This document shows, one piece after another, positions 6,001-9,000 of a stretch of DNA of 44,878 bases. Each line of letters starts with the position of its first letter. Position 1 is the first letter of the stretch. Source of the stretch: a virus; the UHGV virus genome UHGV-0250870. The stretch is one strand, 5' to 3'. Position numbers: made by a program.

Positions 6001-9000
6001 TTCTGGGTAAAAAACATCATGAGTCCGGCAAAACTCCGGGAAAAATGGGATGAACTGGTTATCCGCCTGGGGCGTTCGCCTGCGCAGCGTTGCGTGAATC
6101 ACATTTCTGAACCGGACACTGAAATACCGCCGGGATTCAGGGGGTGACGTGTCATGAAAAACATTGCGGCAGTTGGGGTTCTTGAACGTATTCGCAGACT
6201 TGCACCACAGGGGTCGGTTCCACCGTACCGGACGGTGGAGGAGTGGCGGGAATGGCAACTTGCTGAAGGACGAAAACGCAGCGAGGAGATTAACCGCCAG
6301 AATCGCCAGTTGCGGGTGGAAAAAATCCTGAATCGTTCGGGCATCCAGCCTCTGCACAGCAAATGCTCGTTTGCAAATTATCAGGTGCAGAACGACGGGC
6401 AAAAATACGCGCTGAGCCAGGCCAAATCCATAGCTGACGAACTGATGACCGGGTGCACGAATTTTGTGTTCAGCGGTAAAACCGGCACCGGGAAAAATCA
6501 CCTTGCAGCGGCGATGGGCAACCGGCTGATGGTGAAGGGGCGCAGCGTGATTATCGTCACCGTGTCTGACGTCATGAGCGTGTTGCATGACAGCTACGAC
6601 AACGGCAAATCCGGGGAAAAATTTTTACAGGAGCTTTGCGGGGTTGATTTGCTGGTCCTGGATGAAATAGGCGTTCAGCGGGAGACGAAAAACGAGCAGG
6701 TGGTATTGCACCAGATAATTGATCGCCGGACAGCATCACTGTGCAGTGTCGGGATGTTAACAAACCTGAATCATGCCGCAATGAGTACGCTTCTTGGTGA
6801 GAGGATTATGGACCGCATGACCATGAACGGTGGTCGATGGGTGACGTTTAACTGGGATAGCTGGCGTCCAAATGTCAGCAATATGAGGGTTGTGAAGTAA
6901 TTTTGTCCGGAGGAAATTTTAATGGAAACCGTATCTGACGCACTGAAAGCACTGAAAAAAGCCTCTTCACATGTGGTGGCAGCTCGCCTTGGAATCAGTC
7001 GTGAAGAGGCTGTCAACGAGCTGTGGGAACTCAAAAGAAAAGGCGTCGTTGATAAAACTGGTCGCACCTGGTTTCTGGCTGGCGAAGGTGAATCCCGGGT
7101 AACCGAAGAGCGGCCAGTAAAATCTGAAGCACAGGATATGCTGACCGGGGAGGTCGAACAAAAAGTTACCGCAGACATGATGATTGAGTTTATCGGTCAG
7201 GATGGGGCTAAAACGTGTGAGGAACTGGCGGGTAAGTTCGGCGTCAGTACTCGCAAGGTTGCCTCCACGCTGGCGGTGGTAACCGCAACGGGGCGGCTGG
7301 CACGCGTTAATCAGAACGGTAAATTTCGTTACTGCATGCCGGGCGATAATTTACCAGCAGAGCCGAAAGCCGCGCTGGTAACGGAAAGTGATGGTAAGGC
7401 CTTTCCTCAGCCAGCAGGTGCTGCGTTACCAGTCCGGGAAGCCGCAACACAGGAAGAAATTAAAACAGAAACTGTGGCGGACATTGTGCAGCCGTTGCCA
7501 TCGTTTACCGAAACGCAAGCAGATGAGCTGATTTTTCCGTCCCTTCGCAGGGCAAACCTGGCGCTGCGCAGGGCGAAAAGTGATGTTCAGAAGTGGGAGC
7601 GAGTCTGCGCCGCGCTGCGGGAGCTGAACAAGCACCGGGATATTGTTCGACAGATTACTGATTCTTCCCGCCGTGTTGTATCGGAAAAGTGATTGCCGGA
7701 GGCGCTTATGGCAAAAGTATTTACACAAGAAGAGCGGGAAAAAATTAAAGGGCAGGTTGTTGAACTTGTACGTCTGAGCGGTCGCGAGACGTTGCGGCAA
7801 CTGGAAGCCAAGACAGGTGCGACAAGATATCTGATAAGTGTTCTCGCCAGAGAGCTGGTTGCCAGTGGCGATGTATACAACTCTGGTTACGGGTTATTCC
7901 CGTCTGAACAGGCGCGTAAGGACTGGCAAAATGCTCGCAAAAAACTCTCAAGGGCAAAGGTGAAGAAACCTGCAGTGGTTGATCCGGACCTTATCTGGTC
8001 GTTACCAGACGGCGAAATACGCCGCTACGACAGGCGCCTGAATATAATCTGTCGCGAGTGCCGGAAGAGCGAAGCTATGCAGCGTGTACTGGCATTTTAT
8101 CAAGGAAATGTTAGGTATTTTAGACGTTACTAGATTAAAGAGCATTAGTTCAGATGTGAATTGACATTTTCATGGCGCAGGGTAGAGCCAGCGTGGTTGT
8201 CCGCTTTGCGTCAAAACCAGATATTACCAGATTTAGACATATATTCCCGATAGCCCTGCTCTGATGCTACACTCTGTGCTATTTTCATGACCCCAATAAA
8301 AATATTTATGACTATTGCTGATTTCAAACGGCCTAAATTGGATCTCCCAAACGGGGCAAACAAACTACTACTGCACTCTTGCTGTGCTCCATGTTCCGGT
8401 GAAGTGATGGAGGCGCTTCAGGCCTCGGGAATCGACTACACCATCTTTTTCTACAACCCGAACATTCATCCTCAGAAAGAGTATTTAATTCGTAAGGATG
8501 AAAATATTCGCTTTGCTGAACAACACGGCGTGCCGTTTATCGATGCTGATTACGACACCGACAACTGGTTTGAACGTGCCAAAGGAATGGAATGGGAGCC
8601 TGAGAGGGGGATCCGTTGTACCATGTGTTTTGACATGCGTTTTGAGCGGACAGCGTTGTACGCTGCTGAAAATGGTTTCAGTGTGATCAGCAGTTCACTG
8701 GGCATTTCACGCTGGAAAAATATGCAGCAGGTTAACGAGTGTGGGCGGCGAGCTGTTGCGCATTATCCGGGTATGGTGTACTGGGATTATAACTGGCGCA
8801 AGCAGGGCGGCTCGTCCCGTATGATTGAAATCAGCAAGCGCGAAAAATTCTATCAGCAGGAATATTGTGGCTGTGTGTATTCTCTGCGCGATACCAATCT
8901 ACACCGCAAATCTCAGGGACGCCCTCTTATCAAAATTGGCCAACTCCACTACGGAAAAGAAGAGAAGGAGTGATTTTATGGATCACCTTTCTGATTGATT

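Follow-up and report, generated by a model that had tools for sequence, protein, structure and literature searches.

Between the replication genes and a QueH-like gene of the virus genome UHGV-0250870 lie two adjacent reading frames, ORF1 and ORF2 (positions 6922–8133 of the 44,878 nucleotides analysed, here called the window). A first-pass annotation had described them as winged-helix proteins of unknown role, suggested that they are paralogues and offered antirepressor, late regulator and replication accessory factor as candidate roles. The locus thus raises the question of what these genes are, whether they belong together and what they may do for the phage. Both proved to be real and intact: each has the good ribosome-binding site that had been noted, each is under purifying selection, and homologous DNA is present in thousands of complete Escherichia coli genomes. 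They are two separate early genes, both ordinary and common in E. coli prophages. Nothing here is new, as the pair is already labelled in a RefSeq phage genome. The description "unknown role" did not hold, since both families are catalogued, ORF1 as YdaW/DUF1627 (PF07789) and ORF2 as DUF977/LygF (PF06163), and ORF2 is homologous to Ren of phage lambda, a protein with a known genetic phenotype. A characterised family therefore accounts for half of the locus at most: Ren is partly characterised and DUF1627 not at all.

The two genes belong to the early-right operon of an E. coli prophage of the Rac/lambdoid type. A PR-like σ70 promoter candidate (4483–4512, + strand; 9 of 12 matches in a consensus scan) heads a rightward early operon in which an O-like replication initiator, a DnaC-like helicase loader, ORF1 and ORF2 follow one another, with the QueH-like gene farther downstream. 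No terminator-like site was predicted on the + strand between this promoter candidate and position 9435, and ORF1 and ORF2 are probably co-transcribed from it. The initiator (5200–6147, +) is HTH_36/DnaD_N-like (Pfam HTH_36, 7e-7), bears the RefSeq name helix-turn-helix domain-containing protein and ends in a conserved tail, ...NHISEPDTEIPPGFRG. The DnaC/IstB-like loader (6154–6900, +), directly 5′ of ORF1, matches Pfam IstB_IS21 (7e-19) and Bac_DnaA (2e-7), and its homologue in Shigella phage 75/02 carries the annotation "DnaC-like helicase loader." The order of these four genes is identical in Rac-SA53, Shigella phage 75/02 and E. coli O157:H7. The slot occupied by ORF1 and ORF2, directly 3′ of the initiator and helicase-loader genes, is the one in which phage lambda has ren. 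No rexAB-like genes are visible beside the repressor gene in the window, a point against a Ren-type role. An Rfam scan of positions 4000–13000 returned sok only, with no RNA element in or adjoining ORF1 and ORF2, and no repeats or operator-like sites of note surround the two genes. Structured repeats occur around the locus in two places only, within the initiator gene and at the immunity region.

ORF2 (7708–8133, +) encodes a protein of 141 residues. The mechanical reading frame opens at TTG 7693; the true start is ATG 7708, with a GGAGG (7698–7702, +), read from the sequence, 5 nt upstream, and the RefSeq annotation of E. coli O157:H7 Z903 contains the same 141-residue product. The protein matches PF06163 from end to end (4.3e-28; 98.5 bits against a cut-off of 22.1; profile positions 1–133 of 134), and comparison with diverged homologues gave a dN/dS of 0.06–0.12. 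Residues 7–83 (7726–7956, +) were modelled by AlphaFold2 as a winged-helix domain with a pLDDT of ∼90 and the topology helix-strand-helix-helix-hairpin-helix. A winged-helix fold had earlier been assigned to DUF977 by HHpred/COMPASS (PMC2686095).

Several comparisons show that ORF2 is homologous to lambda Ren (gene ren, 96 residues, PHROG 142), of which it represents a longer form. ORF2 matches phrog_142, "Ren-like exclusion protein," over residues 1–137 (1.2e-46), and lambda Ren matches the same family over residues 1–95 (1.6e-41). The likeness extends to a C-terminal motif of ORF2 (residues 109–133, RRLNIICRECRKSEAMQRVLAFYQG; 8032–8106, +), which was recovered by BLASTP, hhalign and PHROG and matches phrog_142 at 1.2e-16 when taken alone. 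In BLASTP, the lambda motif NLVFKECRQSAAMKRVLAVY and the ORF2 motif NIICRECRKSEAMQRVLAFY are identical at 12 of 20 positions (E 5e-7), and the pattern common to both is N-h-h-x-x-E-C-R/K-x-S-x-x-M-x-R-V/I-L-A-x-Y. Profiles built independently from DUF977 members only and from Ren proteins only aligned in hhalign with 94.6% probability (E 6.9e-8). The helix-turn-helix (HTH) of ORF2, for which the structural model was made, aligns with the HTH region of Ren, so that the two proteins have an N-terminal winged helix in common. With a pI of 10.1 (ORF2) and 9.9 (Ren), both proteins are strongly basic, and both are encoded in a PR operon just past the replication genes. Over the whole alignment identity is ∼30%, and lambda Ren is below the reach of the Pfam DUF977 model; a word-indexed protein search with lambda Ren returned 155 matches, none of them with PF06163.

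The differences from Ren are those of size and arrangement. In Ren, of ∼96 residues, the winged helix is joined directly to the motif, whereas ORF2 has a 10-residue N-terminal extension and, separating domain from motif, a basic insertion of ∼45 residues. Lambda O, P and ren are co-translated, and ren is found with initiator/helicase-loader replication modules, according to the supplement of bioRxiv 10.1101/2021.04.19.439022. ORF2 shows neither the overlap of ren with the loader gene nor this co-translation: a GGAGG of its own precedes it, and 15 nt separate it from ORF1. In contrast to lambda ren, it is parted from the loader gene by ORF1, and in other loci the ORF2 homologue starts 40 nt past the initiator gene. 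In mEp460 and in the 22 IMG/VR loci that were examined, it lies directly 3′ of an initiator gene. The initiator genes that precede copies with >90% identity to ORF2 are of at least three types, which argues against tight co-evolution with any one initiator.

The DUF977–Ren link is already present in PHROGs and in the RefSeq annotation of phages such as Shigella phage 75/02. ORF2 is equally a LygF protein, with 91%–94% identity to the LygF-annotated proteins of Rac-SA53 and mEp460 and no substantive difference from them, LygF being a name without a function. The name goes back to genes in the sdf region, which is specific to Salmonella Enteritidis.

ORF1 (6922–7692, +) encodes a full-length YdaW/DUF1627 protein of 256 residues, named DUF1627 domain-containing protein in RefSeq. 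It matches PF07789 over the complete profile (9.7e-99; 328 bits against a cut-off of 28.1; positions 1–155 of 155) and phrog_630 over its full length (5e-132). The GGAGG preceding it (6909–6913, +), read from the sequence, lies 8 nt 5′ of the ATG, and its dN/dS against diverged homologues is 0.36–0.40. The N-terminal winged helix (residues 1–52; 6922–7077, +) was modelled by AlphaFold2 with a pLDDT of ∼80 and consists of helices 4–11, 16–23 and 27–39 and strands 13–15, 43–46 and 49–52; L34 and W50 are invariant among 38 diverse homologues. A second HTH or winged-helix-like domain (residues 84–140; 7171–7341, +) coincides with the start of the Pfam DUF1627 region. Its three helices (residues 84–122) have a pLDDT of 55–65, and the wing was not modelled. 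It shows sub-threshold matches to HTH_PafC, FeoC and HTH_11 and aligns with the first winged helix in hhalign with 93% probability (E 2.7e-7). We regard the second segment, over residues 84–122, as real with moderate confidence. The count of HTH segments given by the first-pass annotation, two in ORF1 and one in ORF2, thus agrees with the AlphaFold2 models, Foldseek and the sub-threshold Pfam matches.

The remainder of ORF1 comprises acidic linkers and a C-terminal module. An acidic Pro/Ala/Glu-rich linker (residues 141–195; 7342–7506, +; net charge −5.2) is predicted to be disordered (pLDDT <50), and its length varies among homologues, where the alignment is gappy. It is followed by a C-terminal module (residues 196–256; 7507–7689, +) that begins with the end of an [IL]PxF(T) motif, continues with a DDLxxP motif and closes with a long basic helix (consensus EIRRTK..L..LE.LR.A; residues 198–255, pLDDT 60–77). 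This module is conserved in 28 of 29 diverse DUF1627 members, where it matches PF07789 and nothing else, and it is the family-defining part of DUF1627. The family architecture (winged helix, second HTH, variable linker, IPxF...DDLxxP and EIRRTK helix) was derived from an alignment of ORF1 with 37 representatives of 20%–66% identity and is present in ORF1 in full. With the family of YdaW of the Rac prophage of E. coli K-12 (PF07789, PHROG 630), ORF1 has in common the tandem winged helices, the linkers, the C-terminal module and the position past ydaU/ydaV-type replication genes. ORF1 and the YdaW of Rac-SA53 are 66% identical, with most of the divergence in the first 110 residues. The Rac-type ydaW allele of E. 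coli chromosomes (203 residues, L162), unlike ORF1, is without the C-terminal module.

The DUF1627 family is small (155 clusters among 1.84 billion proteins), and all homologues located in this analysis belong to Enterobacterales; a scan of GTDB genomes with a 12-sequence subset yielded 11 loci. The gene adjoins the prophage replication genes on their downstream side in the window, Rac-SA53, PPompW, Shigella 75/02 and vB_Apl-pPE4. In the Enterobacterales loci with readable neighbours, it lies 3′ of replication genes either directly or past one or two small reading frames. In the IMG/VR sample, ORF1 is present exactly where the DnaC-like gene is present, and one initiator type was found both with and without the cassette of DnaC and DUF1627. 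A strict linkage between the two genes holds for Escherichia and Shigella and fails in Serratia, Salmonella, Raoultella and strain BS0013, where DUF1627 occurs without a DnaC-like gene; the link to the loader is therefore not general. DUF1627 has also appeared in a preprint on the Pas sRNA, as a synteny marker only.

Searches by fold placed both proteins among winged helices and no further. With the two models, Foldseek retrieved winged-helix proteins only, at weak E values (2e-3 to 6e-2), the best domain matches having an rmsd of 0.8–2.5 Å over ∼50–56 residues. Against the PDB and BFVD the matches were generic winged helices, none with E ≤ 1e-3. Low-confidence regions in both AlphaFold2 models render whole-chain matches meaningless and offer no detail on mechanism. 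No relative of solved structure was found by sequence for ORF1, for ORF2 or Ren, or for the C-terminal module of ORF1 (best E 0.04–0.3). The fold of these domains is the one common to MarR, GntR, IclR and ArsR/CadC transcription factors, and tandem winged helices as in ORF1 occur in the SelB C terminus and in UFL1-DDRGK1. The Z-alpha domains of ADAR1, PKZ and E3L, which bind Z-DNA or Z-RNA, are likewise minimal winged helices of equal size, with an rmsd of 0.8–1.5 Å over ∼52 residues at 21%–29% identity (Foldseek E 0.03–0.6) and weak matches in the PDB sequence search. Membership in the Z-alpha group was rejected. Z-alpha domains contact Z-form nucleic acid through an Asn and a Tyr of the recognition helix and a Pro-Pro-x-Trp of the wing; of these, a hand alignment showed only the structural Trp (W50) to be conserved in DUF1627. 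At the position of the Z-alpha Tyr, ORF1 has W, and most homologues have R or another residue.

Are the two genes a pair? The order is kept in the elements named above, and 1145 complete E. coli genomes have ORF1 and ORF2 side by side. DUF977-like DNA is present in 74% of complete E. coli genomes and DUF1627-like DNA in 51%, but both occur in just 21%. As each gene occurs independently of the other, they are not an obligate pair. The proposed paralogy also did not stand. BLASTP between ORF1 and ORF2 was not significant, the full-length DUF1627 profile aligned with that of DUF977 at 2.7% probability and with that of Ren at 19.7%, and the C-terminal modules are unrelated. The second HTH of ORF1, sliced out, reached 92% against the Ren/DUF977 HTH, a value that any two winged helices would be expected to give. 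The sequence comparisons thus suggest no demonstrable paralogy beyond the generic winged-helix similarity of the HTH domains. That the two are paralogues working as an obligate heteromeric pair, a view that could draw on their adjacency, on the sliced HTH comparison and on a Raoultella locus with a Ren-like gene just 5′ of DUF1627, is very improbable given the profile comparisons and how often each gene is found without the other. The two frames are in the same phase, with a single TGA (7690–7692) between them, and a 403-residue fusion, P0122, exists in ENA. Programmed read-through was nevertheless ruled out: P0122 has GGA in place of the stop together with a second substitution, P0124 is frameshifted, and the pair in Rac-SA53 is not in frame.

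On balance, we favour the reading that these are early genes in the ren slot, ORF2 being Ren-like and ORF1 an accessory or adaptor of the replication module. Of the roles first proposed, replication accessory factor is the one that best fits lambda Ren; nothing in the analysis pointed to an antirepressor or late regulator. Both proteins would most likely serve as early accessory factors at the phage replication complex. By analogy to lambda Ren, ORF2 would be made early from the PR-type operon along with the replication proteins, may act at the initiator complex through protein-protein and/or DNA contacts, and would allow the phage to go on replicating and growing in hosts with a Rex-type exclusion system. 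Indeed, lambda ren mutants grow poorly on Rex+ lysogens, their suppressors map in O and P, and RexA and RexB contact O and Ren in two-hybrid assays, as given in the supplement of bioRxiv 10.1101/2021.04.19.439022. The tandem winged helices of ORF1 probably bind nucleic acid, and its C-terminal peptide motif and helix probably bind a protein partner or form oligomers. In Escherichia and Shigella phages, ORF1 travels with the second replication gene of the phage, DnaC-like in the window, which suggests that it serves this module as an adaptor or accessory factor. It may in addition take part in counter-defence, as one overexpression screen, described below, hints.

Other roles can be drawn from the same features. 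Both proteins might be sequence-specific delayed-early transcription regulators (for instance an antirepressor, or a regulator of the late phase or of lysogeny) whose winged helices act on operators. The folds and the basic charge suit DNA binding, and a list of predicted E. coli transcription factors without known function includes YdaW (PMC9308461). ORF1 and Ren also match phrog_1687, "MarR family." Sub-threshold matches to Crp, MarR, GntR, PafC, MntR and ArsR HTH models coincide with the modelled winged-helix and HTH positions of both proteins. No transcription-factor family reached its curated threshold, however: MarR/GntR/ArsR/Crp-type Pfam families scored 13–22 bits against cut-offs of 20–32, and the NCBIfam models MntR and ArsR scored 21.7 against 153 and 16.3 against 55. 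Neither protein has a ligand-binding, effector or dimerisation domain of the MarR/GntR/IclR/ArsR type or of other known families, repeated operator-like sites are absent in and beside the genes, and the position is that of replication accessory genes. Ren genetics, too, leads to replication and Rex rather than to transcription, and we consider a regulatory role unlikely.

The genetics of Ren also bears on a further possibility, that one or both proteins are dedicated to counter-defence and directly inhibit effectors of abortive infection from the host or its prophages (retron toxins and Rex-like systems, for example) without involvement of replication, the post-replication slot then being merely an early-expressed anti-defence site. 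The anti-Rex phenotype of ren and the contacts of Ren with RexA and RexB, as reported in that supplement, would fit this, as would an overexpression screen of retron-Sen2 in which K-12 ydaW was among the prophage genes that block the toxin RcaT. The content of the slot varies, with Ren-like, Lpa-like and DUF1627 winged-helix genes in differing orders, and defence-type morons lie just downstream (hok/sok in the window and a restriction-modification system in Z903). Against this, the screen is a single result obtained with the truncated K-12 allele, and the ren suppressors in O and P described in the same supplement tie the phenotype to replication. PADLOC, whose library is of defence and not anti-defence genes, gave weak HTH-level CARF/Csa3 matches for ORF1 (E 1.8e-4 and 1.4e-3) and none for ORF2, and no other search returned a match of this kind. 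Direct inhibition of effectors is thus hard to favour, and we hold it to be quite unlikely. As a speculation of equally low standing, the enterobacterial lambdoid post-replication slot could be a dedicated early site for small winged-helix counter-defence proteins, with DUF977 and DUF1627 shielding the replication complex from abortive-infection systems of resident prophages and host, such as those of Rex or retron type. The C-terminal IPxF/DDLxxP segment of DUF1627 would then engage a replication or defence protein, either as decoy or as adaptor.

Since both families are catalogued and found in most E. coli genomes, the locus carries little weight as a discovery. Its use is more practical. 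The Ren C-terminal motif conserved in DUF977 is a concrete handle on Ren, and the interest of DUF1627 lies in its distinctive C-terminal module, its link to the helicase-loader cassette and the one result from the retron-toxin-blocker screen. ORF1 and ORF2 are both cheap targets for genetics. In the NCBI annotation of E. coli, the product of the ORF2 type is still given just as "DUF977 family protein."

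The interval 6922-8133 holds two plus-strand open reading frames side by side, both with winged-helix AlphaFold2 models, between a DnaC/IstB-like loader gene and a QueH homologue. The first-pass annotation had described two adjacent winged-helix genes between replication genes and a QueH-like gene; the observation is confirmed, and its interpretation proved right in part only. The good ribosome-binding sites that it reported are indeed present: GGAGG lies at 6909-6913 (+), 8 nt 5' of the ATG of ORF1 (6922-7692, 256 aa), and at 7698-7702 (+), ahead of ATG 7708, the credible start of ORF2 (listed from TTG 7693 and ending with the interval at 8133). 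The same ATG is used by RefSeq at the 99.6%-identical E. coli O157:H7 Z903 locus. The window represents a Rac-like lambdoid E. coli prophage. Upstream of the two ORFs it has genes for a Cro-like regulator, a protein of the YdaT family, an O-like initiator (5200-6147) and the loader (6154-6900); downstream it has the QueH homologue, then hok/sok, DUF968, RusA and antiterminator Q. There is no plus-strand terminator-like site from a PR-like promoter candidate (4483-4512) up to 9435, which makes it probable that ORF1 and ORF2 belong to the early rightward operon. Both are real genes, with dN/dS against diverged homologues of 0.06-0.12 (ORF2) and 0.36-0.40 (ORF1). Of 5426 complete E. coli genomes, 2767 contain ORF1-like DNA and 4039 contain ORF2-like DNA; both were found in 1145 when at least 80% coverage of the interval was required. 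They also occur in sequenced phages, including Rac-SA53, PhiR5_2 and Shigella phage 75/02 Stx.

ORF2 belongs to Pfam DUF977 (PF06163; 98.5 bits, cut-off 22.1). Phage records give it the name LygF, and it matches the PHROG family phrog_142, "Ren-like exclusion protein", at 1.2e-46. Lambda ren (L001:1781-2068) matches the same family over its entire length at 1.6e-41. BLASTP aligns NIICRECRKSEAMQRVLAFY of ORF2 with NLVFKECRQSAAMKRVLAVY of Ren (12/20 identical, E 5e-7), the separate DUF977 and Ren profiles align over this C-terminal motif (94.6% probability, E 6.9e-8), and in a joint alignment the winged-helix regions align too. The two proteins have a strong basic charge in common, although ORF2 carries a 10-residue N-terminal extension and an insertion of ~45 residues. 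Lambda Ren does not reach the Pfam DUF977 model, nor did a word-indexed protein search with it recover DUF977 proteins. The link is thus remote, yet it agrees across methods, and on sequence grounds ORF2 can be regarded as a long-form Ren. Comparison of both ORFs with NCBIfam and PADLOC added nothing. The DUF977-Ren link is not new: in Shigella phage 75/02 the ORF2 homologue carries the RefSeq name "Ren-like exclusion protein", and its neighbours are named "DUF1627 domain-containing protein" and "DnaC-like helicase loader". At the level of family and annotation the finding was already known, and there is very little doubt about the family identity of the two ORFs or the homology to Ren.

ORF1 is a member of Pfam DUF1627 (PF07789; 328 bits, cut-off 28.1) and of phrog_630, and phage records name the family YdaW. 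The family is small, with only 155 clusters (50% identity, E <= 1e-3) among 1.84 billion proteins in an exhaustive HMMER search. Alignment of 37 full-length representatives, 20-66% identical, revealed one common plan: winged helix 1, with invariant L34 and W50, is followed by a variable linker, HTH 2, a variable Pro/Ala/Glu-rich linker, the motif [IL]PxF(T)...DDLxxP and an EIRRTK..L..LE.LR.A helix. Charge differs along the chain, basic in the folded modules and acidic in the linkers. PF07789 is the sole match of the C-terminal module, which the 203-aa Rac-type ydaW allele at one comparison locus (L162) lacks.

In the AlphaFold2 models, the HTH/winged-helix segments noticed earlier, two in ORF1 and one in ORF2, are recovered. 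ORF2 has a winged helix at residues 7-83 (pLDDT ~90) and a poorly defined C terminus. ORF1 has a winged helix at 1-52 (pLDDT ~80), a three-helix HTH at 84-122 (pLDDT 55-65), then a disordered stretch between 122 and ~197 and, at 198-255, a long helix (pLDDT 60-77). Sequence searches detected no relative of solved structure, and Foldseek against PDB and BFVD gave no match at E <= 1e-3; all its matches are winged-helix proteins, among them GntR, IclR, MarR and ArsR/CadC proteins, Z-alpha domains, and SelB and UFL1-DDRGK1 with their tandem winged helices. DUF977 had earlier been assigned a winged helix, in Fic-domain fusion proteins (PMC2686095).

The suggestion that the genes are a paralogous pair is at best weakly supported. 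ORF1 HTH 2 matches a mixed Ren/DUF977 HTH at 92% when sliced profiles are compared, and winged helix 1 matches HTH 2 within ORF1 at 93%. BLASTP between ORF1 and ORF2 is not significant, the full-length DUF1627 profile reaches 19.7% probability against Ren and 2.7% against DUF977, and the C-terminal modules are unrelated. HTH 2 matches phrog_142 at 1.6e-6, no better than the "MarR family" phrog_1687 at 1.5e-7. The likeness is best read as one of common fold and superfamily rather than of recent duplication. At 7690-7710 the two ORFs lie in the same frame with a single TGA between them, and rare ORF1-ORF2 fusion proteins (among database entries P0122, P0124, P0361 and P0378) arise via a mutated stop or a frameshift. 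Other database proteins join an initiator N terminus to the C-terminal part of DUF1627 and are presumably deletion products of decaying prophages.

Nor do the genes form a conserved pair. Among fetched loci, almost all from IMG/VR, 127 carry both and 29 carry ORF2 with ORF1 undetected; DUF1627 occurs without DUF977 in PPompW phages and in a record named Actinobacillus phage vB_Apl-pPE4, and DUF977 without DUF1627 in mEp460. ORF1 and ORF2 are two independent genes. In 22 examined loci of the 29, ORF2 lies 40 nt 3' of an initiator gene, and these initiators are of at least three types with the common tail ...NHISEPD(T/N)EIPPGFRG. In these same, mostly IMG/VR, loci the presence of ORF1 coincides exactly with that of the DnaC-like gene. 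The window-type initiator (96% identity) is found both with and without the DnaC-like and DUF1627 genes (the window versus locus L037), and these two genes behave as an optional cassette. The cassette site lies between the initiator stop codon and the ribosome-binding site of the Ren-like gene (6154-7692 in the window versus 5960-6000 in L037). The longer tail QRC(V/M)NHISEPD(T/N)EIPPGFRG ends at least three otherwise different initiators (window 6091-6147; L003, L033, L037 and other IMG/VR loci), and more distant ones (L161, L170) retain (I)P(P/K)GFRG; the tail may serve the different initiators as a common C-terminal docking motif, may mark a mosaic recombination junction, or may do both.

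A GTDB scan with one genome per species gave DUF1627 homologues at 11 Enterobacterales loci. Where neighbours are readable, the homologue sits after replication genes, directly or past one or two small ORFs; the gene 5' of it is DnaC-like, O-like, another initiator or a small winged-helix gene, and the order DUF1627-DUF977 is seen only in Escherichia. Raoultella lignicola (L170, 5506-5799) has a 97-aa Ren-like gene shortly upstream of DUF1627 (phrog_1687 4e-19, phrog_142 2.5e-6). This slot holds other small winged-helix genes as well, as in Serratia (L164 5528-6001; L165 5441-6001), including an "Lpa-like activator" (phrog_1704); several of the encoded proteins end in a Cys-containing amphipathic helix that loosely resembles the Ren motif. 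The Actinobacillus record (L174, PP818812.1; recorded host Actinobacillus pleuropneumoniae) has an E. coli Rac-type early region with dicA, ydaT, primosomal protein, DUF1627, Ead and hok genes, at ~83% nucleotide identity to ORF1. The recorded host seems questionable; alternatively, the element is a prophage of E. coli.

No functional characterization of any DUF1627 or DUF977 protein was found in the literature searched. The best reading makes ORF1 and ORF2 early accessory genes of the replication region, each independent of the other. Lambda Ren is said, in work by Thomason and Court from 2022, to relieve RexAB-dependent host phenotypes. The supplementary text of bioRxiv 10.1101/2021.04.19.439022 states that in lambda the genes O, P and ren overlap and are translated together, that initiator/helicase-loader replication modules are accompanied by ren, that ren mutants of heteroimmune phages show poor growth on Rex+ lysogens and have suppressors that map to O and P, and that Ren interacts with RexB and RexA in two-hybrid assays. 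Plaques can form without ren (PMC10695390), and ren is not needed for P-lethality and replicative killing (PMC3640518). By analogy, ORF2 would most likely be a basic winged-helix protein that acts, Ren-like, at the initiator complex, and its effect would be to keep the phage productive in cells with a Rex-type exclusion system. In an overexpression screen, K-12 ydaW was one of the prophage genes that blocked the retron-Sen2 toxin RcaT. ORF1, which travels with the phage loader gene in Escherichia, is most likely an adaptor that binds nucleic acid and would contact a protein partner through its C-terminal peptide and helix; it may also have a counter-defence role. The chance that the mechanism we infer is right is about even at best.

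That ORF1 and ORF2 are conventional transcription regulators seems unlikely. That the two are anti-defence proteins independent of replication is a shade less probable again. Accessory genes of the replication region remain the preferred reading.

Within the O-like initiator gene, a near-perfect palindrome with 18-nt arms (5571-5607) and two 13-nt direct repeats 21 nt apart (5644-5677) make 5571-5677 a candidate replication origin, because the lambda ori is located within O. The cI-like repressor gene (- strand, 1395-4449) is split by an IS21-family insertion, with istA (2562-4061) and istB (1810-2565) between the HTH N terminus (4150-4449, -) and the S24-peptidase-like C terminus (1395-1757, -); the split probably leaves the prophage without an active repressor of its own. 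The PR-like promoter, located between the repressor and Cro-like genes, is flanked by two copies of TTTTGATT(T/A)T(A/T)AAAC at a distance of 46 nt (4451-4465 and 4497-4511), which are probably operator sites. Directly after ORF2 lies the QueH (epoxyqueuosine reductase) homologue, a moron (8287-8973), followed by a hok/sok-type toxin-antitoxin locus (9041-9366) in which the sok match (Rfam RF01794, 9041-9216, 120.5 bits) overlaps a Hok-like ORF (9154-9366); a terminator-like hairpin (9435-9452) lies 3' of it. In O157:H7 Z903 (L171 9237-11247) a cytosine methyltransferase and an NgoMIV-family restriction enzyme take the place of hok/sok, which makes the region 3' of the Ren-like gene a variable cargo site.
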